A stretch of DNA of 64,000 bases from an uncultured bacterium (GCA_903832855.1 CAILDB010000014.1:64144-128143), one strand, 5' to 3'; positions 3,996 to 45,164 are shown, numbered from the stretch's first letter. Notes: a model not told the origin generated them from the sequence alone. Numbers and translations are program-made.

Positions 3996-5186
3996 ATGGA
4001 AAAAGAACCAAAATCTATGCTAAATATCTCGGCAGTCACCATGGTCAAATTTATTTTGATTATTTTGGGATTTTACTTTTTGTTTTTTATTCGGGACATA
4101 ATCGTGGTGGTGCTTGTTGCAATTGTTATTGCTTCTGGCGTTGAGCCGTTTATTTTATGGTGTGGTAAATACAGAATAGTTAGATTGCCGGCAGCCATTA
4201 TTACTTACCTAGGACTCATTGGAATTTTTGCCGGATTATTTTATTTTTTTATTCCTTCCGTTTTAAACGAAACATCCTCCTTTCTTACTTCATTGCCAAA
4301 ATATCTTGAATCAACAACTCTTTGGAATCCTTCAGGTGCAAGCAGTGAAATAATTACAAAGTCACAGCAAGTCGTCAGTGGTATTTCTAGTGGAATAAAT
4401 AATCCTGGCGCTTTGGTCTCAGGACTTGGTACAACTGTTAGTGATAAAACATCAAGTGAGACAGTAGTGAGTACCTCTTTTGGCCTCAAGGATTTAATAG
4501 CAGGAGTTCAACAGCTTGCTTCCGGTGCGTCGGATAGTTTTATCAAAACTGTCAGTGCTATTTTCGGAGGACTTTTCTCTTTTGTTTTAATAATCGTTTT
4601 GTCTTTTTACCTTGTTGTGCGTGAAGACGGAGTTGCTGACTTTCTCGGTCTTATCACTCCTGCAAATAAAGAGAAATACATCATTGGTCTTTGGAAAAGG
4701 TCACAAAAGAAAATCGGTCTGTGGATGCAAGGGCAATTTGTTTTGATGCTTACTATCAGCGTTCTCGTATATCTTGGACTTACGATTTTGGGCGTCAAAA
4801 ACGCTTTGATGCTTGCCCTTCTCGCTGGAATGCTTGAAATCATTCCACTTTTTGGCCCAGTCCTTGCCTCCATACCTGCCATTCTTTCGGCTTTTGTGGA
4901 CGGTGGCGTGACGGCATCTTTTATTGTTATTGGTCTTTATGTCATAATTCAGCAATTTGAAAATCATCTCATCTATCCTCTTGTTGTAAAAAAGATTGTT
5001 GGTGTTTCACCGGTAATCGTTATACTTTCTTTGATTATTGGTGCAAAACTTGCAGGATTTTTGGGAATTGTTTTGTCCGTACCTATTATTTCAGCCCTAA
5101 TGGAACTTATTGAAGATGTTGAAAAAAAGAAAAGGGGTTCTATGGAATATATTGAATCAACAAGTGCCGGCCCTGATAAAAAATAA
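3996..5186 (+). CDS. AI-2E family transporter (PerM/UPF0118) with Ser/Thr-rich inserted loop
   Basis: Multiple TM helices; conserved C-terminal IIPLFGPVLASIPAIL motif of the AI-2E family. Confidence 0.7.
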   Translation: MEKEPKSMLNISAVTMVKFILIILGFYFLFFIRDIIVVVLVAIVIASGVEPFILWCGKYRIVRLPAAIITYLGLIGIFAGLFYFFIPSVLNETSSFLTSLPKYLESTTLWNPSGASSEIITKSQQVVSGISSGINNPGALVSGLGTTVSDKTSSETVVSTSFGLKDLIAGVQQLASGASDSFIKTVSAIFGGLFSFVLIIVLSFYLVVREDGVADFLGLITPANKEKYIIGLWKRSQKKIGLWMQGQFVLMLTISVLVYLGLTILGVKNALMLALLAGMLEIIPLFGPVLASIPAILSAFVDGGVTASFIVIGLYVIIQQFENHLIYPLVVKKIVGVSPVIVILSLIIGAKLAGFLGIVLSVPIISALMELIEDVEKKKRGSMEYIESTSAGPDKK

Positions 5187-5188
5187 AA

Positions 5189-6649
5189 ATGTCTGACAAA
5201 AAACTCTTCTACATAACTACTACTCTCGCATATGTAAATGCCGAAGCACATATGGGGCATGCTCTTGAATTTATTCGTGCGGATGTTATCGCCAGATACA
5301 AAAAACTTGAGGGTTTCGAAGTATTTTTTAATACTGGCTCGGATGAGCATGGGCAGAAACTTTATCAAAAAGCGCTTGAAGAGGGGAAGACACCAAAAGA
5401 GTTTACTAGTTTTTATGCCGATAAATTTAAAAAGCTTATGGGGCTTCTTGGTATTACGGAAGAAGAGGGAATTACAAGAAATTTCATCAGAACTACAGAC
5501 GAAAACCACATAAAATCAGCACAGGAATTTTGGAAAATTTGCGACAAAAACGGTTTTATTTACAAAAAGAATTATCAAGTGAAATATTGCGTGGGTTGTG
5601 AACTTGAAAAGACGGATTCGGACTTGGTAGATGGTAAATGCCCAGATCATCCGAACAGTGAGCTTGAAATCCGCGAGGAAGAAAATTATTTTTTCAAATT
5701 TTCCGCCTTCGGCGATAAACTTTTGAAACTTTACAAAGAAAATCCTACTTTTGTTATTCCCGATTTTAGATTTAATGAAATAAAAGCTTTTGTGGAAAGA
5801 GGTTTGCAGGATTTTAGTATTTCTCGTCTCAAATCCAAAATGCCTTGGGGGATAGAGGTACCAAACGACAGTGAACATATAATGTATGTTTGGTTTGATG
5901 CACTTGTAAACTATGTCACTGCTATCGGCTGGCCGGAAGATATGAAAAAGTATGAAAAATGGCAAGTGGAGACAGGTGGAATGGTGCAATACTGCGGAAA
6001 AGACAATCTTCGTCAGCAGTCTGCAATGTGGCAGGCAATGCTTATGGCTTGTGGCCTTTCAAATTCAAAAACAATTGTGATAGATGGTTTTGCAACGGGT
6101 CCGGGGGGGATAAAAATGAGTAAGTCGCTTGGCAATACTGTGAGTCCCGTTGAACTTGTAGAAAAATACAGCACAGATGCTTTGAGATATTTTGTTACGA
6201 GGGAACTCAGTACTTTTGAAGACAGTCCGGTATCTCCAGAAATTTTCAAAGAATCTTACAATGCAAATCTTGCAAATGGTCTGGGAAATCTTACGAGTAG
6301 AATTATGAAAATGGCAGAAACAAATTTGGATAAACCTGTGGAAATTTCAGAGAAAACAATTCCTCAAGAATTTTACGACTATCTTGAAAAATTTGAAATA
6401 CAAAAAGCCACAAATTTAATTTGGCAAAAGATTTCCGAGCTTGATAAATTGATTCAAACTGAGCAACCTTTTAAACTTGTAAAGACAGATAAAGAGAAGG
6501 GAATTGAGATTATTGTGTCTTTTGTCAAGGGCCTTGACACCATCGCCGAAATGCTAAATCCGATAATGCCTGAGACATCAAAGAAAATAAAAGAATTAGT
6601 AAAAACAAATAAATCTCCAGAGAGGCCACTATTTTTAAGGGTGGAATAA
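5189..6649 (+). CDS. metG: Methionyl-tRNA synthetase
   Basis: Class I HMGH (HIGH-type) motif near the N-terminus, KMSKS motif (KMSKSLGN), CxxC zinc knuckle. Confidence 0.9.
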   Translation: MSDKKLFYITTTLAYVNAEAHMGHALEFIRADVIARYKKLEGFEVFFNTGSDEHGQKLYQKALEEGKTPKEFTSFYADKFKKLMGLLGITEEEGITRNFIRTTDENHIKSAQEFWKICDKNGFIYKKNYQVKYCVGCELEKTDSDLVDGKCPDHPNSELEIREEENYFFKFSAFGDKLLKLYKENPTFVIPDFRFNEIKAFVERGLQDFSISRLKSKMPWGIEVPNDSEHIMYVWFDALVNYVTAIGWPEDMKKYEKWQVETGGMVQYCGKDNLRQQSAMWQAMLMACGLSNSKTIVIDGFATGPGGIKMSKSLGNTVSPVELVEKYSTDALRYFVTRELSTFEDSPVSPEIFKESYNANLANGLGNLTSRIMKMAETNLDKPVEISEKTIPQEFYDYLEKFEIQKATNLIWQKISELDKLIQTEQPFKLVKTDKEKGIEIIVSFVKGLDTIAEMLNPIMPETSKKIKELVKTNKSPERPLFLRVE

Positions 6650-6659
6650 GTAAATAATT

Positions 6660-7493
6660 ATGAAAAACACAAAAATTTCAATATTTGAAGGTCAAAAAAT
6701 AAGAAAAGTTTGGGATGATAAAGAAGAAAAATGGTATTTTTCGGTTACAGATGCGTGCGGTGCTCTTACAGAGAGTGTTGATGCTGGAGCATATTGGAGG
6801 AAACTTAAACAAAGGCTCATTGAAGAAGGAAGTGAGGTCGTGACATTTTGTCACGGACTGAAATTAGAGGCTTCTGATGGTAAAAAATATGAAACTGATT
6901 GTGCCGACACAGAAGGAATTTTTCGTATTATTCAATCAATTCCTTCACCAAAAGCTGAGCCCTTCAAGCGTTGGCTTGCTCGAGTAGGATACGAAAGAGT
7001 AGAAGAAACAAATGACCCAGAATTGGCTATCAACCGAGCGCTGAATACATATTTGAAAAAAGGATATAGTCCTGAATGGGTCAATCAGCGATTAAAAAGT
7101 ATTGAGATAAGAAAAGATTTGACTGATGAGTGGCGAAAAAGAGGAGTGAAAGAGGGTTTGGAATTTGCCTTGCTCACAGATGAAATTACTTTTGCTTGGG
7201 CAGGAATTAAAACAAAACAATACAAAGAGCACAAAGGATTGAAGGCGGAAAGTTTGCGAGATAATATGACTAATCTTGAACTGGTTTTAAATATGCTTGC
7301 GGAAACTGCGACTACAGAAATATCTAAAAAAGTTGAGCCGAAAGATTTTTTGGAAAATACAAGAGTGGCACAGCAGGGTGGGGGAATTGCTGGCAATGCT
7401 CGTAAAAATTTAGAGGAAAAACTTGGTAGGAGTGTTATAAACAAACAAAAATTCTTACCAAAGAAAAATATTAGGATAGGTAAGGGGAATTAA
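6660..7493 (+). CDS. dinD: DNA-damage-inducible protein D-like (BRO-N domain protein)
   Basis: N-terminal Bro-N-like segment (IFEGQKIRKVWDDKEEKWYFSVTDACGALT); C-terminal half alignable to E. coli DinD (HKGLKAESLRDNMTNLELVLNMLAETATTE). Confidence 0.55.
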   Translation: MKNTKISIFEGQKIRKVWDDKEEKWYFSVTDACGALTESVDAGAYWRKLKQRLIEEGSEVVTFCHGLKLEASDGKKYETDCADTEGIFRIIQSIPSPKAEPFKRWLARVGYERVEETNDPELAINRALNTYLKKGYSPEWVNQRLKSIEIRKDLTDEWRKRGVKEGLEFALLTDEITFAWAGIKTKQYKEHKGLKAESLRDNMTNLELVLNMLAETATTEISKKVEPKDFLENTRVAQQGGGIAGNARKNLEEKLGRSVINKQKFLPKKNIRIGKGN

Positions 7494-7498
7494 TAAAA

Positions 7499-7525
7499 GG
7501 CCCCCGAATGCAGCATTCGGGGGCC
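7499..7525 (+). terminator. Intrinsic terminator hairpin (12-bp GC stem) after dinD-like gene
   Basis: ggcccccgaatg-cag-cattcgggggcc followed by a T-rich run. Confidence 0.6.
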
Positions 7526-7538
7526 TTAATGTTTAGTT

Positions 7539-7563
7539 GTCATTCCGGCGAAGGCAGGAATCC
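7539..7563 (+). repeat. Family-1 palindromic repeat unit (GTCATTCC-N-GGAATCC hairpin), intergenic
   Basis: gtcattccggcgaaggcaggaatcc; 8-bp stem; same family as copies at 7571, 27044, 27104, 27181, 36688, 40872, 43601. Confidence 0.75.
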
Positions 7564-7570
7564 ATCTTTT

Positions 7571-7595
7571 GGATCCCGACCTGCGTCGGGATGAC
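7571..7595 (-). repeat. Family-1 palindromic repeat unit, inverted copy
   Basis: ggatcccgacctgcgtcgggatgac is the reverse complement of the 27181 copy (gtcatcccgacgcaggtcgggatcc). Confidence 0.75.
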
Positions 7596-7717
7596 AAAAA
7601 ATATAGTCATTTCATTCCTTATTTTTTTGTCAGTTATCCACAGCCCCTCTCTTTTTGCATTTGCACTCTTTTCCCTCAACATATATAATATACTCAATGA
7701 AACTAAAATTTTTTAAA

Positions 7718-7732
7718 TCTCTCTCTCTCTCT
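7718..7732 (+). repeat. (CT)7 dinucleotide tract between the signal-peptide start codon (7697) and the body of the surface-protein gene
   Basis: tctctctctctctct; ATG at 7697 is in frame 2 and the body is in frame 1; removing one CT unit fuses them. Confidence 0.7.
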
Positions 7733-7818
7733 ACTCTCTATTAACTCTTGCAATAATTACTAGCATTGTCGTCTTTGCCGGTTCTCTCACTCCCTCTGCC
7801 AATACCACTCAAGGTACA

Positions 7819-9186
7819 ATGTACACTCTCAACGACATCTACCACCTCATAGCAAACAACACCCTAGCAACCGAAGGATTAAATCATGAACTCTCCACCA
7901 CTTCTTCTCCCTCTGTACCCACCTCCCACTCTATATCTGAAATCTACGCTGCTCTAGCTAATCTCCCCACCCAAGACAAACTCAAACCAGATTCCACTTA
8001 TTTAGGTGTCTCCCAGTCAGGTTCTGCTCCCACTCCAACCACCTTTACTCCCGCATCTCTTACACCCTCAGGCTCACCTTCAATCACAGGCTATACTCTA
8101 AACGACATCTGGAACCTTGCTACTACAAGTGGCACCAGACTCACATCCCCAAGTTCTCACTCTCTTTCCACTACCTCAGCACCTACAGGTACAATGCACA
8201 CACTCAAAGAAATTTACCTTGCTTTAGTCGCATATGGAGATGCTCATAAATCTGATGTTCTAAATACCACAACTTACCTTGGAACATTAGGAACCTATGT
8301 CCCAACTCACACAGTTACTTTTGATGCTAATACGGGTACGGGGTCCATGTCTGCTCAAACAATTGCGGAAGGGGCCTCAGCTAATTTAACCTCCAACACC
8401 TTTACTAAAACAGGTAACAACTTTTCCGGTTGGGCCACAACTGCCGGCGGAGTTGTTGCTTATGCTGATGCCGCCAGCTATACCATGGGCTCATCGAATG
8501 TGACGCTGTATGCCAAGTGGGCTATAAATTACACAGTTACCTTTGATGCCAATACCGGCAGTGGTTCTATGTCTCCACAAACAATTGCGGAAGGGGCTTC
8601 AGCTAATCTGACGGCCAACACCTTTACCAAAACAGGTAACACCTTTGCGGGCTGGGCCACAACTGCCGGCGGAGATGTCGCCTATGCTGATACGGCCAGT
8701 TATACCATGGGCTCATCGAATGTGACGCTGTATGCCAAGTGGACAGCCGTAGTAGATGCTTGTGGCGTGAGTGGTGATGCAACGGATCTGGATTGTTGGT
8801 CTATGGGATCTCCGATCTCTATGGCTTGGGGGCCCAACCCATCATACCCTGGTGTTTCAACTGATATCGGTCTTTCAAACGGTAAAGCCAATACGGATGT
8901 TTTAATGGCAGCAGAATCTGCATATTCCGAGTCATATCCTGCCGCTCACTATTGCGCTACTTTAGACGATGGTACTCATCCTGTTGGTACGTGGTATCTG
9001 CCATCTTATGCTGAACTATGGGCTGGTTATGGCGCTGTCCCGGGATTTATGGGCGACGCTTATTGGTCTTCTACTGAGTGGTCACAAATGTCAGACACAT
9101 GCGCCTGGGCGTTGTACCCGGGCCTCAACGATATTTACGGCGCCAGTAAGGACACACCGCCGTACAATGTCCGTTGTCTCCGCTAG
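7819..9186 (+). CDS. Surface protein with tandem Listeria-Bacteroides (InlB B-type) repeats and C-terminal DUF1566 (Lcl-like) domain; probable true start at 7697 via CT-tract frameshift
   Basis: Two ~70-aa repeats TVTFDANTG.GSM..QTIAEGASANL...YAKW; C-terminus WYLPSYAELW...YWSST...NVRCLR; three YTLNDIY-type N-terminal repeats; GC-richer than neighbours. Confidence 0.7.
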   Translation: MYTLNDIYHLIANNTLATEGLNHELSTTSSPSVPTSHSISEIYAALANLPTQDKLKPDSTYLGVSQSGSAPTPTTFTPASLTPSGSPSITGYTLNDIWNLATTSGTRLTSPSSHSLSTTSAPTGTMHTLKEIYLALVAYGDAHKSDVLNTTTYLGTLGTYVPTHTVTFDANTGTGSMSAQTIAEGASANLTSNTFTKTGNNFSGWATTAGGVVAYADAASYTMGSSNVTLYAKWAINYTVTFDANTGSGSMSPQTIAEGASANLTANTFTKTGNTFAGWATTAGGDVAYADTASYTMGSSNVTLYAKWTAVVDACGVSGDATDLDCWSMGSPISMAWGPNPSYPGVSTDIGLSNGKANTDVLMAAESAYSESYPAAHYCATLDDGTHPVGTWYLPSYAELWAGYGAVPGFMGDAYWSSTEWSQMSDTCAWALYPGLNDIYGASKDTPPYNVRCLR

Positions 9187-9267
9187 CCCCAGTAACCAGA
9201 CAAGGACTGTCCTTGTAGATAGGGCAATAATGGGGTCAGCCACCATTTCATTAAATTATAAAAAACC

Positions 9268-9423
9268 ATGAGCACAATATCAGCACCACTACCACCTATC
9301 CTAGATGAATTTGTAAAAAGGATGGTTAAAGAAGGAAAAGCCCACAACAAAGCAGATGTTGTGCGTAAAGCTTTGGAGCTTCTGGAAGAGAAAGATAAGC
9401 AATCGGATAAGAGCAAGAATTAG
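9268..9423 (+). CDS. Small ribbon-helix-helix protein (ParD/CopG antitoxin-like), orphan
   Basis: 51-aa ORF not in the ORF track; ...VKRMVKEGKAHNKADVVRKALELLEEKDK resembles RHH antitoxins; followed by two hairpins. Confidence 0.4.
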   Translation: MSTISAPLPPILDEFVKRMVKEGKAHNKADVVRKALELLEEKDKQSDKSKN

Positions 9424-9473
9424 GGCCTACGGCAAGGTCAGACCTTGCCATAAGAACTTGTAAATTAGTCAAA

Positions 9474-9497
9474 GGCCCCGCGTTCTGACGCGGGGCC
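9474..9497 (+). terminator. GC hairpin terminator (ggccccgcg-N6-cgcggggcc family)
   Basis: Same 9-bp stem as the hairpins at 28196 and 53578. Confidence 0.55.
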
Positions 9498-9519
9498 TTT
9501 GTGATATAATTACAGAAAT

Positions 9520-10362
9520 ATGGAAATAAAATATATTGATATTCACTCGCACCTTGGTTTTGAGGATTATGGCGAGGATCAAAAAGAGGTGATAAAGAGA
9601 ATGCAGGAAGCTGGGGTTGCGACTATTGTAGTGGGGGCGGATTTGGCAAGTTCAAAAGAAGCTGTGAAAGTAGCAACTGAGAATGAAAATGTTTGGGCCT
9701 GCATTGGAATGCATCCGAATCACAATGTGGTGGAAGTTTTTGATGAGAAAGAATATGAAGAACTTGTAAAAAATCCTAAAGTTGTGGCGGTGGGGGAATG
9801 TGGTTTGGATTATCATATAGCACCCGATTTGTCTTTGCGAGGTAATCCGAAGCAAACCAGACCTGATTCTCTGGATTGCTTCACTTCGTTCGCAATGACA
9901 GAGAAGAAGCAGAAGCAAAAAGATGACTTTATAAAACAAATTGAACTTGCGATAAAATACAAGAAGCCCCTTATGCTTCATATTCGTGATGCTCATGATG
10001 ACGCATATGAAATTCTTAAAAAATATGAAGGAAAAGTTTTTGGAAATTTACATTTTTTCACTTCGACATTAGAAAATGCAAATAGATTTATTGCCCTTGG
10101 ATTTACTATCTCATTTCCGGGAATTATTACCTATGTCAAGGACCTTGACACCATAGTGAAGTCAATACCCCTTGAAATGATGCACGCCGAAACTGATTCT
10201 CCATTTGCCTCTCCTGTACCATACCGTGGCAAAAGAAATGAACCGTCATATGTGATAGAAGTTTACAAAAAAATCGCTGAAATCCGTGGAGAAGATTTTG
10301 AAGTCGTTCGTCAACAATTATTAAATAATGCCCGAAGATTGTTTGATATCTCTTTTGTATAA
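9520..10362 (+). CDS. tatD: TatD family metal-dependent hydrolase, with in-frame repeat insertion
   Basis: IDIHSHLGFEDY and GECGLDYH motifs; ~25-aa insertion LSLRGNPKQTRPDSLDCFTSFAMTEKK encoded by the family-2 repeat. Confidence 0.8.
   Translation: MEIKYIDIHSHLGFEDYGEDQKEVIKRMQEAGVATIVVGADLASSKEAVKVATENENVWACIGMHPNHNVVEVFDEKEYEELVKNPKVVAVGECGLDYHIAPDLSLRGNPKQTRPDSLDCFTSFAMTEKKQKQKDDFIKQIELAIKYKKPLMLHIRDAHDDAYEILKKYEGKVFGNLHFFTSTLENANRFIALGFTISFPGIITYVKDLDTIVKSIPLEMMHAETDSPFASPVPYRGKRNEPSYVIEVYKKIAEIRGEDFEVVRQQLLNNARRLFDISFV
9831..9903 (+). repeat. Family-2 palindromic element inserted in-frame in tatD
   Basis: gtctttgcgag...gattgcttcacttcgttcgcaatgacagag; homologous to 40791-40868 and partial copy at 27227. 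Confidence 0.75.
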
Positions 10363-10383
10363 TTATACACAAGAAAAAGCATG

Positions 10384-10421
10384 CCCCGTAGTAAGAAATT
10401 CTGATTTCTTTACTACTGGGG
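10384..10421 (+). terminator. CCCCGTAGTAA..TTACTACGGGG hairpin family (terminator-like) after tatD
   Basis: ccccgtagtaagaaattctgatttctttactactgggg; related copies at 41754, 55952 and split arms at 15283/15386. Confidence 0.6.
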
Positions 10422-10625
10422 TCCGTCTGCAACTTTTAGAAAATGCGAGGAAACTTTTTGGAATAAATCTGTCAAAATAACTCTATTTTAGACATCTTTT
10501 CAAATCGTTGATTTATTATTTGTATGGGTGTATAACATTATGTAGATAAGGAAGGTTCTTTGAATATATGAGATAGGAATAAATAGGGTTTGCCAAAACC
10601 TAACAACACAAGAAAGAAGGAAGTC

Positions 10626-12362
10626 ATGAAAACATTTTTGATGCTGATGCTGGTATTGCTTTGCAGTTTTGCAACTGCAGGAACTTACTATTGTTCCACG
10701 AGCGGATTATCTATATATCCGTATACGAATGCCGTTATGGCTGGAACTAATATGTATGCTGTTGCTCAAGCCATGAATACGGTCGGAGACAACAGCGGAA
10801 ACATCATCATTGTGGCGGAAGGTATTTTTCCTTGCCGTGCCGTGAAATTACAGAAAGATGTTTCCATTAAAGGCACTGGACCTGCGACCACTATATTGGA
10901 CGGAGGTTGGGTGGCCGGCAATAGTGTTCTGTCATCTCCGTGGTTGTATAACATAAATTTGGAAGTGACAGATGTTACGATACAACACGGAACCGCATCC
11001 ACCGGATATTATTCCGGCCTATCGGGTGGCGGACTGGCAGTGGATCGTGCAAATAGTGTCGTGCTGAAAAACTGTGTCATCGCTGACAATGGTGACTCTT
11101 CAACGCACTTCGGTGGTGGCATAGCAGCAGGACCAGCGGATGTAACTGCGATTGATTGTGTATTTTCAAACAATATGGCTTTGCATTCTGGAGGTGGAGT
11201 TTGGATTTACAACAATTCATCGTCGTCGTTTACGCGATGTATTTTTGAGGGCAATATGATATCCCTTGCTTTTGAAGGCATGGGTGGTGCTGGTGGCGGT
11301 TTGGATGCGGATGCCACCGACAGCAGTTTGAGTCTGACCGTGGACAGTTGCATATTCAGGAATAACATTAGCGGTTTGGGTGGCGGTCTTTATTTATCAG
11401 CAAGGCATGGAAACTCTAGTGTTCGTAATTGTCTGTTTCAAAACAATTGGGCACTTGGTAGCGCCGGATCTTCTGTTGGTGGTGGCATAATGGGTGGGAT
11501 AGTTGATTGTGTTGGAATACTGGAACTTTCTCATCTGACAATTACCGGCAACCATGCTGATTATTATGCGGGTGGAATTAAATTTGGAGGTGGCAGGACA
11601 TATCTGGAAAATTCAATTATATGGGGAAATTCTGCACCAACAAATGAGAATTGGCAGGTGAAAGATATTGATTTAATTCCGCATTCGATATCGTATTATA
11701 GGGGCAGTATCATATGCTCTTATATGTTGGTTGTTCCATTGATCGAGGATCCTCGACAATTCTACAATGTGTCGTACGTCTGCACTTCTCCTTTGACTAA
11801 CAGAGTGGAATGGCAGAGCTGTATAGACACAAATCCAATGTTTGTGACCAGTGACTGTAAACTGGACTGGTCGTCTCCGTGCGTTGGCGTATGTCCTGTG
11901 ACTACAACGACAAATGACATGCGCGGATATCCACGGCCCATACCTGGAAAAACAGGCACAGATATGGGTTGCTGGGAAATGGCAAATCCTGTCAGTGACT
12001 ACATTGGAGATAATATCCCAACATGGTGGAAAGAGCGGTACGGTCTAAATGTATTTGGCATCAGCAGTGCTGATTTGGACTTTGATAATGATAGCGTAGG
12101 CAACTACAGCGAGTGGATTGCTGACACAGACCCGACAAATAACCTATCATACCTACATATCAATAAAATATTCAAATCAACAAATACCGTTTTGTTCTTT
12201 ACAGCATCAAGCAATAGGACATACACAATCATGTCGTCGTCTAATCTAGTAAGTTGGACGACCGTTCTGACGAACTTGAATCTTGCGGGAGCAAGTCAAG
12301 TGGCGGTACCTGTGCAGAGTGTGCCGGAGTACTACCGAGTTAGAGCGCGTATGAACTATTGA
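10626..12362 (+). CDS. Secreted right-handed parallel beta-helix repeat protein, hypothetical
   Basis: Start moved to Met13 (SD aaggaag 5 nt upstream; signal peptide MKTFLMLMLVLLCSFATA); repeated NN..G.GGG beta-helix motifs; GC-richer than neighbours. Confidence 0.55.
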   Translation: MKTFLMLMLVLLCSFATAGTYYCSTSGLSIYPYTNAVMAGTNMYAVAQAMNTVGDNSGNIIIVAEGIFPCRAVKLQKDVSIKGTGPATTILDGGWVAGNSVLSSPWLYNINLEVTDVTIQHGTASTGYYSGLSGGGLAVDRANSVVLKNCVIADNGDSSTHFGGGIAAGPADVTAIDCVFSNNMALHSGGGVWIYNNSSSSFTRCIFEGNMISLAFEGMGGAGGGLDADATDSSLSLTVDSCIFRNNISGLGGGLYLSARHGNSSVRNCLFQNNWALGSAGSSVGGGIMGGIVDCVGILELSHLTITGNHADYYAGGIKFGGGRTYLENSIIWGNSAPTNENWQVKDIDLIPHSISYYRGSIICSYMLVVPLIEDPRQFYNVSYVCTSPLTNRVEWQSCIDTNPMFVTSDCKLDWSSPCVGVCPVTTTTNDMRGYPRPIPGKTGTDMGCWEMANPVSDYIGDNIPTWWKERYGLNVFGISSADLDFDNDSVGNYSEWIADTDPTNNLSYLHINKIFKSTNTVLFFTASSNRTYTIMSSSNLVSWTTVLTNLNLAGASQVAVPVQSVPEYYRVRARMNY

Positions 12363-26800: not shown

Positions 26801-27373
26801 CTTTCTGCCGTAGACGACAATTCTGGTATTCTAAAAATAGAATATTCTTTTGACGGAAATACTTGGAATTTATACACAAAACCATTTTCTGCATATGGCA
26901 AAACTGTCAGTTATTTTGCAACCGACAATGCCGGAAATATTGAATCATTTCAAACTATTACCATACCCAATTTGGAAGTTGCTATCTCATCTGGTGGAGG
27001 TGGTGGTCCAATAATTCAAATTCCTATCCCCTCTGTCCCTTCTGTCATTCCCGTGCAGACGGGAATCCAGTCTCCTTCCTCTTCATCTCCCTCTGTTCTC
27101 TCTGTCATTCCCGTGACCCACCCCGTGAAATCTGATTTGTATTTCACTGGGGACACGGGAATCCAGTCTTCCTCTTCTCTGTCATCCCGACGCAGGTCGG
27201 GATCCATCCCCTCTGTTGTTCATTCTGTCTTTGCGAGGAGCTCTGCGACGAAGCAATCTACTCCGATCCTCACCGCCTCCGTCATAGACTCCAGAATAAA
27301 TATCCCCTCAATAATCACAACCTTCTTCCACAATCTCTGGTCCCACATATTTTCATTCTTTAAACACTTGTGA
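23828..27373 (+). CDS. Large secreted protein: signal peptide, parallel beta-helix domain, LCAT-like alpha/beta-hydrolase (lipase/phospholipase), Ig-like domains, repeat-encoded C-terminal tail
   Basis: GTG start; signal peptide; hydrolase hallmarks PVIIIPGIMGT, FPYDWRKS (YDWR motif), GxSxG IIAHSMGG and FIGTPHLGAP; C-terminus read through the family-1/2 repeat array. Confidence 0.7.
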   Translation: MKRQNCSFYIAGLFFLSFFILFSPLNNVFAETELHAGDDGLYHISTDTTWTKSAGPYVIYNDVSVDSGSILTIEAGTEIKLAAGVYINVLGKLIANGTESEKVSFTSLDSALPWGAVYALNGGSYEVHNADVSYADSAFGAYHGNGSLDSVSVHDCKYGLDITDGNFDVKNSSFTNMSRIVADIYDNSHLSFTSSSIENPGRRVFRVTHGSTLNLSDLSLDDAHGDQVFEVYRESSVNVDNLSVKNFYGYSVAEVYQNSLISITNSTIEDSTTGWGDVIEIFDSSHLTLTNSTIKNTIGWSAINVGDCRDNSSSTVDISDSVIDGGTEMGVALICSVTANISNTKITNFLTAGVESLSNPVIRISNSEISGNDRGIESYGGDVEITDSIIKDNLSYGIYNLASYYDSYYEIWVEKLPIKADGNWWGDKSGPFNATLNGPGLANPVSSNVEFSPWLKSDPKIKKKNPVIIIPGIMGTHISQNYGDNEELWPNVGKLLGSFTDEFLNDLSFNTDGTENADFPMTIGDIVRKVELAGQTVTDTFDGLISTLIADGYTEGTDLFVFPYDWRKSDSDDAVLLKSKIDEVLAQTGGSKVDIIAHSMGGLIASKYVADNTAEKVDKLIFIGTPHLGAPKAFKALMYGDDMGIKLGSLSFLHPPELKKISQNFPSVFDLLPSQAYSYKYIYDMTATTSKWLDYDEVKNFIINHGGNESLFSQAESLHASTDTFDLSGADVYNFSGCGTTKTIGSMTVKKKKSWTSLGQKLVDDYSIDYVNGDETVPLVSAVGPFGDRNYYVKGFKHSELPSADGVPETIFSILSGVSATTTSNISKSDLFCDIPGQVVSTHSPVTLDIYDDLGNHTGPVDGGDIEYGIEGVSYDIVGTSAFAFLPEGRSYRIVIHATDIGAYDFYITKLGTGGGTVSEAYWNEIPLTTLSTNSEINISSTSTEYVIETDQEGDGIFESTTTPSSILSATTSEDLISPQSTSTVSNGIVSLSAVDDNSGILKIEYSFDGNTWNLYTKPFSAYGKTVSYFATDNAGNIESFQTITIPNLEVAISSGGGGGPIIQIPIPSVPSVIPVQTGIQSPSSSSPSVLSVIPVTHPVKSDLYFTGDTGIQSSSSLSSRRRSGSIPSVVHSVFARSSATKQSTPILTASVIDSRINIPSIITTFFHNLWSHIFSFFKHL
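27027..27270 (+). repeat. Tandem array of three family-1 units plus a partial family-2 unit forming the 3' end of the 23828 gene
   Basis: Units at 27044-27068, 27104-27164 (with nested ccccgtgaaat hairpin) and 27181-27205; gtctttgcgagg...gaagcaatc at 27227-27269. Confidence 0.75.
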
Positions 27374-36687: not shown

Positions 36688-36714
36688 GGATTCCGTTCTT
36701 CAACGGAATGACAG
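36688..36714 (-). repeat. Family-1 palindromic repeat unit, intergenic
   Basis: ggattccgttcttcaacggaatgacag, identical to the unit inside argS. Confidence 0.75.
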
Positions 36715-40305: not shown

Positions 40306-41733
40306 ATGGTTCAAAAAGCCCCAAAATCGGTTAAAAAGCCTAAACAAGACAAAGGCCCCAAGCTGACATACGATGTGGTGGTGATAGGTGGTGGGCCTGC
40401 AGGGCTTATGTCCGCTTGCATTTCTGCTGAAAACGGAGCAAAAGTCCTTCTACTAGAGAAGAACGAAGAAATGGGTAAAAAGCTTCTAATTTCCGGTGGT
40501 GGCAGATGTAACATCACAAATGCTGATCCAGACAAAAGAAAATTTGTTTCAAAGTTTGGTAAAAAGGGTGACCTTTTATTTAGTCCTCTTTCTGTCTTTG
40601 GTGTGCAGGATACGATTCAGTTTTTTAATAATTTAGGAGTGAAAACAAAAGTTGAAGCTGGTTTTCGTGTGTTTCCTGAGAGTGATAATTCTTCTGATGT
40701 TCTTGAAGCTTTCGTGCAAAAGGCAAAAAAAGTTGGAGTGGAATTTAAAACTTCTGCGGAGGTTATGGGATTTAAGACATTGTCACTCCCGTCTTTGCGA
40801 GGGTCTTCCCGAAGCAATCCAGATTCCGATTCTTTAGATTGCTTCGCTTCACTCGCAAAGACAGAGGAGATGGATTCCGGCCTTCGCCGGAATGACAGAA
40901 AAGAGGAAGGAAACGACAGAGGGAAAATCTCTGCAGTAATTTTGAAAAATGGGGAAGAAGTAGTTGGAAAGAAATTTATTTTGGCGACTGGCGGAATGTC
41001 ACACCCAGAAACTGGCTCTACCGGTGATGGTTTCAAATGGCTTACTGAAATTGGTCACAAAGTTGCAAAACCAAATCCTTCTCTTGTGCCAATTAAAATT
41101 TCTGAGTCGTGGATTGGCGATTTTTCTGGAATTACTTTGGAAAATGTTGGAATTTCAATCTGGCAAAATGGCACGAAAAGTATAAATAAAAAAGGCAGAG
41201 TTCTTTTTACACACAACGGACTTTCCGGCCCGATGATTTTGAATATGAGCAAAGATATTGGCGACCTTTTACAATACGGCGAAGTGAAAGTCGCAATAGA
41301 TTTTTATTCCGGAGTCGGACTTGATGAAATGCACGAGAATTTCAATAAACTATTCAAAGAGCATTCAAATAAAAAAATAAAAAATCTTGTTTTGCCGGAA
41401 GTCCCAGCAAAAATATTTGAAAAAATTCTTGAACTTCTTGAAATTGACGGAGAAATAGAAATGCACTCAATTTTCAGGGAGGAAAGATTTTCTCTGATAG
41501 AAAAATTAAAAAAGTTTGAGCTCACGGTCGGCGGACTATTGGGCTTTGATAAGGCGATAATCTCAAGTGGTGGACTGGACCTTTCTGAAGTTGATTTTAA
41601 AACAATGGGTTCCAAGCTTTACAATAATTTATTTTTTGCCGGTGACATTTTGGATTTCGATAGACCTTCTGGAGGATTTTCTTTGCAGTTATGCTGGACC
41701 ACAGGTTATATTGCTGGTAAGAACATCAAATAG
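40306..41733 (+). CDS. NAD(P)/FAD-dependent oxidoreductase, HI0933/YhiN (BaiN-like) family, with ~45-aa in-frame repeat insertion
   Basis: YDVVVIGGGPAGLMSA...LISGGGRCNITN; insertion LSLPSLRGSSRSNPDSDSLDCFASLAKTEEMDSGLRRNDRKEE encoded by family-2 + family-1 repeats. Confidence 0.75.
   Translation: MVQKAPKSVKKPKQDKGPKLTYDVVVIGGGPAGLMSACISAENGAKVLLLEKNEEMGKKLLISGGGRCNITNADPDKRKFVSKFGKKGDLLFSPLSVFGVQDTIQFFNNLGVKTKVEAGFRVFPESDNSSDVLEAFVQKAKKVGVEFKTSAEVMGFKTLSLPSLRGSSRSNPDSDSLDCFASLAKTEEMDSGLRRNDRKEEGNDRGKISAVILKNGEEVVGKKFILATGGMSHPETGSTGDGFKWLTEIGHKVAKPNPSLVPIKISESWIGDFSGITLENVGISIWQNGTKSINKKGRVLFTHNGLSGPMILNMSKDIGDLLQYGEVKVAIDFYSGVGLDEMHENFNKLFKEHSNKKIKNLVLPEVPAKIFEKILELLEIDGEIEMHSIFREERFSLIEKLKKFELTVGGLLGFDKAIISSGGLDLSEVDFKTMGSKLYNNLFFAGDILDFDRPSGGFSLQLCWTTGYIAGKNIK
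40791..40868 (+). repeat. Family-2 palindromic element, in-frame in flavoprotein gene
   Basis: gtctttgcgag-ggtcttccc-gaagcaatc-cagattccgattctttag-gattgcttc-gcttcact-ctcgcaaagac-agag; nested inverted repeats. Confidence 0.8.
40872..40898 (-). repeat. Family-1 palindromic unit, in-frame in flavoprotein gene, immediately after the family-2 element
   Basis: ggattccggccttcgccggaatgacag. Confidence 0.8.
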
Positions 41734-43400: not shown

Positions 43401-45164
43401 ATGATAGAGAAAGTACTGGAAAATTTAATAAAAAAAGCATTGGAGTCGCTTGGAATTGAGGGAGCGGAAACTTTGAATGTGAGTTTGGAACATCCAGAGG
43501 TGATGGCTCATGGAGATTATTCTACAAATGTTGCGATGGTGCTGGCGAAAAAGATGGGGGAAAATCCGAGGGAGCTGGCGGGGAAGATTAAAGAGGAGAT
43601 GGATTCCGTTCTTCAACGGAATGACAGAGGGGAAAATATGATAGAGAAAATTGAAGTTGCAGGGCCGGGGTTTATTAATTTTTATTTAGCGAAAAAAGTT
43701 TTTGAAAATGGGGTGGGGGAGATTTTGAAGGATGGTAATCAATATGGTCGTAATAATATTTTAGATGGTCAGAGAACAATTATTGACTACACTGACCCAA
43801 ATCCGTTTAAGGATTTTCATATTGGGCACTTAATGAGTAATGCAATTGGCGAGTCACTTTCAAGAATAATGGAGGCGAACGGAGCTATCGTAAAAAGGGC
43901 CAATTATCAAGGCGATGTGGGTATTCATGTTGCTAAAGCAATCTGGGGTGCATTTAAAATGCTTAACGAGTCAGAGTGCAAGAAAGCATTTTTTGGGGGT
44001 TGGTTTGGTCTTGGAAAAAATTCAAAAATTTGGGGACAGGCGTATACTTTAGGTGCGATAGCTTTTGAAACAGATGAAAATGCAAAAAAGGAAATAACTA
44101 ATCTGAATAAGAAGATTTACGATCGTTCGGATGGAAAAATAAATAAACTTTATGATATTGGGAGAAAAACATCCCTAGAATATTTTGAAAAGATTTATAA
44201 AATTCTTGGCACAAAATTTGACTACTATTTTTTTGAAAGCGAAGTGGATGATTTAGGGAAGGCGATTGTGCTTGAGGCTATGGCGAAGGGTTATTTTGAA
44301 AAAAGCGATGGGGCGGTAATTTTCCGAGGGGAGAAATATGATCCGCTTTTGCATACTCGGGTTTTTATTAGTTCCCAGGGATTACCAACATATGAGGCAA
44401 AAGAAATTGGTTTAACAAAAGAAAAATATCGCCGATTTGCTTTTGATAAAACAATTGCTGTTACAGGAAACGAAATTAACGATTATTACAGAGTAGTCAA
44501 AAAAGCGATGGAATTTACTATACCTGATTTGGCTTCTAAAGTGGTGCATATTGGTCATGGAATGTTGCGACTACCTTCTGGTAAAATGTCATCTCGAACA
44601 GGACAGGTAATTACGGGTGAGTCATTGCTTACCGAAATACAAAAAAATATTTTGGAAAAAATGAGAGATCGAATGATGTCAAAAAAAGAAAAAACGCAAA
44701 TAGCAGAAATCGTGGCGGTGGGAGCATTGAAATATTCCATTTTGAAACAAGCTGCCGGTGGGGATATTATTTTTGATTTTGACAAGTCAATTTCTTTTGA
44801 GGGGGATTCTGGACCATATTTGCAATATTCATATGTTCGTGCAAAATCTGTTTTGGAAAAAGCAAAAGATGAAAATGTAAAAGCAAAAATAAACAAAGGT
44901 GATTCTGACGGAAGTGTTTTGGAAAAAATGCTTTTGAGATTTACGGAAGTGGTGGAAAGGGCGGGAAGGGAATACTCGCCACATTATCTTGCGATTTATC
45001 TGACTGAACTTGCATCTGCATTCAGCACTTTTTATGCAGAAGGAAAAATTGTGGACAAAACCGACGCAAAATCTCCTTACAAAATTGCTCTTACGCAAGC
45101 TTTTTCTGTCGTGATGAAAAGCGGATTGAATCTTTTGGGGATAAAGGTGCCCGAAAAAATGTAG
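43401..45164 (+). CDS. argS: Arginyl-tRNA synthetase (with 9-aa in-frame repeat insertion)
   Basis: FHIGHLMSNAIGESL (HIGH) and GKMSSRTG (KMSK-like); AGPGFINFYL; insertion MDSVLQRND from the family-1 unit. Confidence 0.9.
   Translation: MIEKVLENLIKKALESLGIEGAETLNVSLEHPEVMAHGDYSTNVAMVLAKKMGENPRELAGKIKEEMDSVLQRNDRGENMIEKIEVAGPGFINFYLAKKVFENGVGEILKDGNQYGRNNILDGQRTIIDYTDPNPFKDFHIGHLMSNAIGESLSRIMEANGAIVKRANYQGDVGIHVAKAIWGAFKMLNESECKKAFFGGWFGLGKNSKIWGQAYTLGAIAFETDENAKKEITNLNKKIYDRSDGKINKLYDIGRKTSLEYFEKIYKILGTKFDYYFFESEVDDLGKAIVLEAMAKGYFEKSDGAVIFRGEKYDPLLHTRVFISSQGLPTYEAKEIGLTKEKYRRFAFDKTIAVTGNEINDYYRVVKKAMEFTIPDLASKVVHIGHGMLRLPSGKMSSRTGQVITGESLLTEIQKNILEKMRDRMMSKKEKTQIAEIVAVGALKYSILKQAAGGDIIFDFDKSISFEGDSGPYLQYSYVRAKSVLEKAKDENVKAKINKGDSDGSVLEKMLLRFTEVVERAGREYSPHYLAIYLTELASAFSTFYAEGKIVDKTDAKSPYKIALTQAFSVVMKSGLNLLGIKVPEKM
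43601..43627 (-). repeat. Family-1 palindromic unit in-frame in argS
   Basis: ggattccgttcttcaacggaatgacag. Confidence 0.8.

Follow-up and report, generated by a model that had tools for sequence, protein, structure and literature searches.

A CT repeat in the signal-peptide coding region of a putative surface-protein gene: a candidate phase-variation switch in an uncultured Paceibacteria bacterium

Here, we describe a candidate phase-variation switch in a 64-kb stretch of DNA from an uncultured bacterium (hereafter the window). A tract of seven CT units lies within the first codons of a gene for a predicted exported protein and places the start codon in a different reading frame from the rest of the gene, and a second natural allele that is one unit shorter has a continuous frame. 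We consider slipped-strand switching between ON and OFF, located in the part of the gene that encodes the signal peptide, a fairly probable explanation of this arrangement. Recent pseudogenisation is its main and serious rival. All features are given in window coordinates and lie on the plus strand.

The body of the gene is a 455-aa ORF at positions 7819-9186, as called in the assemblies that carry the out-of-frame (OFF) allele. Its frame is bounded on the 5' side by a TAA at 7714-7716 and is open from 7717 to 9186, and stands in the -1/+2 frame relative to an ATG at 7697-7699 that is followed by AAA CTA AAA TTT TTT AAA. The part between 7717 and 7818 is coding sequence, as judged from the open frame, homology and hydropathy, and holds no ATG, GTG or TTG in the body frame. 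Reading of the sequence, comparison of the frames and a repeat search all place the frameshift site at the tract T(CT)7 (tctctctctctctct, 7718-7732), which makes up codons 8-12 of the ORF that begins at 7697 and has an imperfect continuation A(CT)3, up to 7739, according to TRF. With seven units this ORF has 15 codons (MKLKFFKSLSLSTLY, 7697-7744) and ends at the TAA at 7742-7744. When tract lengths of 4 to 10 units were rebuilt in silico, CT6 and CT9 gave continuous ORFs of 495 and 497 aa that start MKLKFFKSLSL(SL)YSLLTLAIITSIVVFAGSLTPSANTTQGTMYTLNDIY, and lengths of 4, 5, 7, 8 and 10 units gave stubs of 13-22 aa. In these simulated alleles, gain or loss of units switches the gene between the full-length frame and an early stop. 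The first-pass annotation had described the ATG at 7697, the MKLKFFK n-region, the tract at 7718-7732 in another frame than the body, the lack of an upstream in-frame start and the continuous ORF obtained by removing one CT unit or adding two, and on all these points it read the sequence correctly.

The length of the tract exceeds chance. It is the sole dinucleotide run of more than 4 units in the window and also its sole period-2 array. None of 100 first-order Markov simulations of the window produced 7 units; the longest run was of 4 units in 71 simulations, of 5 in 26 and of 6 in 1. Under the local CT-rich composition of the 5' part of the gene, a composition that includes the tract itself, a run of at least 7 units in 614 nt has a probability of 0.0012. 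In 0.93 Mb of sequence from 80 MetRS-anchored loci of related Paceibacteria (Patescibacteria/CPR), ten dinucleotide runs reach 5 units and no run is longer. The tract also has the sequence features of a contingency locus, as its unit is not a multiple of three, it is located inside an ORF, and its seven units lie above the cut-off of at least 6 units that PhasomeIt applies to phase-variable dinucleotide tracts (PMC6321876). The 64-kb window holds no second candidate tract and hence gives no indication of a phasome.

The two frames that the tract separates together encode a predicted signal peptide. The first 7 codons from ATG 7697 form the n-region with a net charge of +3, and the body frame between 7717 and 7818 encodes the h-region SLSLYSLLTLAIITSIVVFA. 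The likely cleavage site is VFA↓GS (the arrow marks cleavage); the body frame of the window encodes VFA↓GSLTPSANTTQGTMYTLNDIY and reads on as VFA-GSLTPSANTTQGT-MYTLNDIY, with a predicted mature N-terminus of the repaired protein of GSLTPSANTTQG. The repaired N-terminus contains an uncharged stretch of 24 residues (residues 8-31) with a Kyte-Doolittle peak of 2.89, and AlphaFold models residues 5-27 as a single helix. A positively charged n-region, a hydrophobic h-region of at least 10-20 residues and small residues at -3 and -1 are the hallmarks of a Sec-type (SPase I) signal, here recognised by a heuristic. The N-terminus of the 455-aa ORF has no charged n-region, uncharged stretch or hydropathy peak of this kind.

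Homologues carry the same arrangement in one frame. A query with the 204 N-terminal residues of the repaired protein returned four proteins of about 240 aa from ENA/Logan (P0123-P0126), and a pattern scan of JGI metagenomes added ten further relatives (loci L083-L092). The gene's own cluster was not among the results of the 204-aa search. All 14 homologues are uninterrupted ORFs with a Lys-rich n-region and an h-region, followed by A.A↓(I)GSL(T/S)PS...(T)M/QYTLNDIY. In BLASTP and tblastn comparisons they are 32-48% identical to the repaired protein over the N-terminal region, and they have in common with it the A.A↓GSL(T/S)PS context, YTLNDIY/SEIYAA motifs and an Lcl_C-type C-terminus that ends in VRC(V/L)R. 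Unlike the protein described here, most of them lack Flg_new repeats. The predicted cleavage site VFA↓GS aligns with ARA↓GS, SFA↓GS and ANA↓IGS of the relatives. Residues G28, L30, T31, P32, S33 and T40, all located 5' of Met7819, are invariant in the comparison with P0123-P0126, and a GSLTPS-type motif is also present in the ten JGI relatives. In the 14 relatives homology extends 13-14 residues upstream of Met7819 and onward into the signal peptides. Met7819 itself falls opposite Q, or opposite the internal M of TMYTLNDIY, and is the start codon in none of them. Thus, the comparison with homologous loci that the first-pass annotation had proposed does not return proteins that begin at the downstream Met, and it bears out the suggestion that the annotated ORF has been cut off from its signal-peptide start.

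The surroundings of ATG 7697 fit this picture. A promoter-like site, TTTGCA-18 nt-TATAAT, is found at 7660-7689 (10 of 12 matches), and its -10 box TATAAT at 7684-7689 ends 7 nt before the ATG (spacer atactca), so that the transcript would be leaderless or have a very short leader. In the window TAnAAT occurs at -18 to -4 in 9 of 38 gene starts, compared with 3% of all ATGs, and most genes have no Shine-Dalgarno sequence. The start at 7697 therefore resembles a normal start of the leading gene in a transcription unit of this genome, with a transcript that is probably leaderless. The upstream Bro-N gene is closed by a terminator-like hairpin (7497-7527), so the putative surface-protein gene forms a transcription unit of its own. 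Three independent lines, homology, promoter context and signal-peptide features, support 7697 as the true start and Met7819 as an internal residue.

The protein behind the predicted signal peptide is modular. Three short (Y/H)TL(N/K)(D/E)I(Y/W) motif modules reach up to about 8310 and are followed by two Flg_new / InlB B-repeat domains at 8309-8742, which form a 222-bp tandem duplication. The C-terminal domain, at about 8760-9186, is Lcl_C-like with a sub-threshold Pfam match. The first-pass annotation had named a Listeria-Bacteroides repeat and DUF1566. The repeat assignment is solid: Flg_new (PF09479) scores 91.8 bits against a threshold of 27 in two stretches, and the model of the repeats matches the InlB B-repeat 2y5p with a TM of 0.70-0.77 normalised to the target, at a pLDDT of 75-87. 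The DUF1566 assignment (Lcl_C, PF07603) falls short of the threshold, since the C-terminal 147 aa reach 20.0 bits where 34.9 are required (E = 8.6e-4, profile positions 24-117). A weak Foldseek match to the Lcl C-terminal domain 8q4e_A (E = 0.025, probability 0.95, TM 0.39) comes from a region modelled with a pLDDT of 60-76. The AlphaFold model is poor overall (mean pLDDT 57.6), useful for the Flg_new repeats and weakly so for the C-terminal domain. In P0123-P0126 the corresponding domain is a bona fide Lcl_C (57 bits). Other Pfam matches were Flg_new_2 and a weak SBD, and no anchor motif was seen in the protein. In a search with the full-length protein the Flg_new repeats dominate at about 30% coverage, and no close orthologue appeared outside the gene's own cluster. 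The C-terminal part has its closest relative in P0023 (50% identity over 60% of the query), where Flg_new and the C-terminal domain follow a type IV pilin-like N-terminus. This N-terminus indicates that the module is extracellular in relatives and supports an extracellular role. Signal-peptide features, Flg_new and the pilin-anchored P0023 all point to an extracellular location, and the protein may act as an adhesin in host attachment.

Natural alleles of the tract were sought by exact-sequence look-up of a public collection. The 455-aa, out-of-frame call is found on 50 contigs, many of which probably stem from one lake study or population and are not independent; all 17 long contigs that were read carry it. 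The exact 495-aa product of a CT6 allele was found on one contig, L002 (ERZ27313583, 1,958 bp, MEGAHIT-style name), from a different sample and a different assembler than the window. Over 1,856 columns L002 aligns to window 7614-9469 with no mismatch and a single gap, which corresponds to one CT unit. That one CT unit is the sole difference in about 1.85 kb is expected if the tract is the fastest-mutating site. Nucleotides 1-104 of L002 have no match in the window, so that the CT6 contig comes from another strain or context. Two tract lengths, CT6 and CT7, are therefore seen directly on otherwise identical DNA, with the ON length on one contig. Products of CT9, CT3 and CT12 are absent from the public collection in exact look-ups, and scans for the tract flanks with 5-35 nt between them gave no match in JGI metagenome contigs and none in GTDB species-representative genomes. 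Look-ups with the Bro-N, TatD and 51-aa ORFs led nearly always to one and the same neighbourhood, with L093 as the sole new scaffold.

Further tract lengths are suggested indirectly by the way in which two long scaffolds from different samples of another assembly series end. L093 (71.8 kb) matches window 4860-7732 without a difference and breaks off at the last T of the tract. L001 (77.6 kb), likewise without a difference over window 7678-12186, begins 55 nt before the tract end, and its opening 55 nt repeat the closing 55 nt of L093. In metaSPAdes, 55 is the default value of the final k. This 55-mer consists of 40 nt of unique flank and T(CT)7 and is the last k-mer that CT7 alleles have in common with alleles of at least 8 units. 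Reads with a longer tract would give rise to just such a fork of the assembly graph at the tract end, and so would PCR stutter, or a SNP or other variant at 7733. A tract fixed at CT7, which the first-pass annotation had named as the observation that would speak against a switch, is not what these data reveal, as an otherwise identical CT6 allele exists and two scaffolds fork at the tract end.

We propose the following mechanism. A single gene at 7697-9186 would encode a Sec-exported protein composed of a signal peptide, three YTLNDIY-type motifs, two Flg_new domains and an Lcl_C-like C-terminus. The CT repeat would sit between the coding parts for the n-region and the h-region, where replication slippage would alter the tract by whole CT units. 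With 6 and 9 units, and generally with 3n units, the start would remain in frame and the exported preprotein of 495 or 497 aa would be made (ON). Other lengths, the CT7 of the window included, would lead to termination after 13-22 codons (OFF), and a product begun at Met7819 would carry no export signal. Slippage in the population may be frequent and reversible, and switching may be adaptive, for example in host attachment or in the avoidance of phage or predators.

Several observations speak against such a switch. It is possible, if on balance unlikely, that the frameshift is a recent one-way loss of function and that the gene is a young pseudogene in a lake population, with CT6 as the ancestral allele of another strain. 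The tract would then be prone to slippage, yet switching would be too rare, or under too little selection, to qualify as phase variation. OFF calls on 50 contigs against ON on one would be expected in this case, as would the different upstream flank of the ON contig, which indicates another strain or context. Two contigs (ERZ1426595 and ERZ1426682) carry a 330-aa call that corresponds exactly to residues 126-455. The distance from the Bro-N stop to the gene stop is unchanged in them at 1,693 nt, so that an extra inactivating lesion of the substitution type must be located in the 5' third, between 7819 and 8194, as one would expect of a gene in decay. The leaders of the 14 homologues are free of dinucleotide repeats; this, the absence of CT9, CT3 and CT12 products and the lack of a second tract in the window also count against a well-maintained switch. 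The genomic setting is compatible with loss as well: with a GC of 48.8% against 37-38% the gene is a compositional outlier, and its neighbours, a Bro-N gene and REP-like palindromes, suggest an accessory island that the cell can dispense with. Against pseudogenisation stand the 455 downstream codons, which are intact and identical to those of the ON allele and thus leave no time for decay, the exceptional and perfectly pure tract exactly at the canonical switch position, and the scaffold forks at the end of the tract, which involve at least two samples.

A further reading is an artefact of sequencing or assembly, in which the true tract would be in frame and CT7, or the single CT6 contig, would be a consensus error. 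Stutter during PCR is common in dinucleotide repeats, CT6 is known from a single contig of 1,958 bp, and L001, with 100% identity to the window, could derive from the same data. We regard an artefact as very unlikely: the 455-aa call recurs in several samples and at least two assembly pipelines on its 50 contigs, and a tract of 14-15 nt is within the accuracy of Illumina reads, of which the consensus takes the majority.

It is still less probable that the CT7 allele is expressed by recoding, that is by a ribosome shift of +2/-1 on TCTCTC or a slip of RNA polymerase that would supply a low set level of full-length protein. A slip of two nucleotides in either direction on a CT repeat would restore perfect codon-anticodon pairing. 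However, downstream of the body-frame stop (7714-7716) the zero frame contains no X XXY YYZ slippery heptamer, and an in-frame CT6 allele exists, so that the gene does not depend on recoding. To our knowledge, transcriptional slippage, where known, takes long A/T homopolymers. We give just as little credence to the idea that the ORF from Met7819 is a real gene for a cytoplasmic protein, with an upstream ATG and hydrophobic stretch that are coincidental: gene callers chose this start on the 50 contigs and a weak AAGG lies 5 nt upstream of it, but no promoter box was found before 7819, the homology of the 14 relatives continues upstream into signal peptides, and Flg_new and Lcl_C-type modules are extracellular.

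The adjoining MetRS is 53-77% identical to proteins of MAGs labelled Taylorbacteria, Zambryskibacteria, Nomurabacteria and Paceibacteria, which places the window in a member of the class Paceibacteria of the Patescibacteria/CPR. A synteny search around MetRS in 80 related genomes found no homologue of the gene at that place. The habitat is probably lake water. Rfam and tRNA scans of the window gave no matches. Related loci contain reverse transcriptases preceded by G9-G12, an observation that prompted the idea of a DGR target gene; this idea was rejected, as the best RT match in tblastn has E = 1.3 and a second copy of 8741-9186 is absent from the 64-kb window.

Switches of the proposed kind have been described before. 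The H. pylori Hop-family genes hopZ, sabA and babB, in addition to oipA, carry 5' CT repeats. In oipA (hopH) the CT repeats in the signal-peptide part set the frame, and isolates display many ON and OFF lengths (PMC10564699). The locus described here resembles oipA in the CT unit, the position in the signal peptide just after the start, the slippage logic and an OFF state without signal peptide. However, the protein is unrelated (Flg_new/Lcl_C-like and not a beta-barrel) and hence an analogue of the Hop family, not a member. The bacterium is a monoderm-like CPR member from lake water and not a pathogen, two alleles (CT6 and CT7) are seen directly in place of many, and there is no paralogous family with a common leader. 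The Neisseria opa genes contain CTCTT repeats in the leader peptide, which slip at a rate of some 1e-3 per cell per generation (PMC3960869). In both systems a pyrimidine-rich leader repeat is translated into a Ser/Leu-rich hydrophobic stretch and sets the frame, with a pentamer as the unit in opa and a dimer here. The opa genes form a multigene family that undergoes recombination and encode an experimentally proven adhesin, a role that is putative for the protein described here. Within the CPR, a hypervariable PTD-repeat gene of Gracilibacteria varies in the number and sequence of in-frame 9-mers (PMC6851277). It is the only case of repeat-driven hypervariation of a CPR surface or extracellular protein that we found in the literature; there the protein length changes, and unlike in the gene described here no ON/OFF frameshift occurs at the gene start.

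Thus, the mechanism itself is classical and known from pathogens, and what is new is the lineage. No account of SSR frameshift phase variation in CPR bacteria came up in our literature searches, and the locus may, as we tentatively suggest, be the first SSR contingency locus documented in the Candidate Phyla Radiation. In practical terms, the public 455-aa gene model is cut short at its 5' end; the real product is a preprotein of 495 aa, and the model on the 50 contigs is mis-started or frameshifted. Most CPR/Patescibacteria have never been cultured, and little is known of how they deal with host-cell contact. If the proposed switch is true, an ultra-small, probably episymbiotic Paceibacteria cell stochastically toggles the export of a lectin-like surface protein and would in this way hedge between attachment to host cells and evasion of phage, grazers or host defence. 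A validated switch would single out the Flg_new/Lcl_C-like protein as a determinant of the cell surface on which selection fluctuates, and would show that contingency loci occur beyond host-associated pathogens. It would also open a genetic route to the surface proteins that are important in the contact between CPR bacteria and their hosts.

The gene that carries the CT tract is a compositional outlier, with a GC content of 48.8% in 7819-9186 compared with 37-38% in the genes for MetRS, Bro-N and TatD, and its region 7819-8310 holds 35% C and 11% G. This composition points to possible horizontal acquisition, or else to a strong bias towards the amino acids Thr, Ser, Pro and Ala. The two Flg_new repeats of the protein are encoded by a 222-bp tandem duplication (8309-8742), the copies of which are 87% identical. 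This duplication is a second potential site for changes in repeat number, via recombination or slippage, and such a change would stay in frame.

On two contigs, from ERZ1426595 and ERZ1426682, the gene is called from Met126 only. The resulting 330-aa product is 100% identical to the C-terminal part of the protein and the length of the locus is unchanged, which implies a nonsense or start-loss substitution within the first 125 codons (window 7819-8194). When the N-terminal 204 residues served as the query of a homology search, P0001, the gene's own protein cluster, was absent from the hits despite 164 identical residues, possibly because of a composition filter. For this reason, the search may likewise have overlooked close paralogues whose N-termini are of similarly low complexity.

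The upstream flank of the in-frame allele, as assembled, differs from that in the window. Upstream of 7614, positions 1-104 of L002, the short metagenome contig with the CT6 allele, are wholly divergent from window 7510-7613; they contain neither a Bro-N gene nor REP units and have no match anywhere in the window. Thus, either the CT-tract gene has more than one genomic context or L002 is chimeric. The REP-like palindromes form a family with at least eight sites in the window (unit GTCATTCCGGCGAAGGCCGGAATC, with variants such as GTCATCCCGACGCAGGTCGGGATC). They are located at 7530-7613, 27044-27067 and 27181-27204, and on the minus strand at 9874-9899, 36689-36712, 40873-40896 and 43602-43625. 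Of these units, two occupy the stretch that separates the Bro-N terminator from the CT-tract gene's promoter. The tatD coding sequence contains one copy in frame, which is translated as ...SLRGNPKQTRPDSLDCFTSFAMT... and comprises about 80 nt similar to window 40791-40870.

Tracts of another kind, poly-G runs of 9-12 nt, were found at five loci of AT-rich related Paceibacteria genomes. In four of them (L009 2393-2404, L041 7082-7091, L045 913-921 and L049 2087-2095) a reverse-transcriptase-like ORF follows the tract at a distance of about 10-15 nt; immediately after the fifth tract (L017 509-517) no long ORF was seen. RVT_1 was detected at 80-82 bits in L041 and L049, the two loci scanned against Pfam, and tract length varies from species to species. 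Instead of forming a phase switch, the poly-G tracts probably belong to a DGR or retron element.

Most genes of the window lack a Shine-Dalgarno motif, and a TATAAT-like box is positioned 6-12 nt ahead of many first-gene starts (for example 3996, 9520, 17327, 38584 and 49814). These features suggest that leaderless mRNAs, or mRNAs with very short leaders, are widespread in the source Paceibacteria genome.
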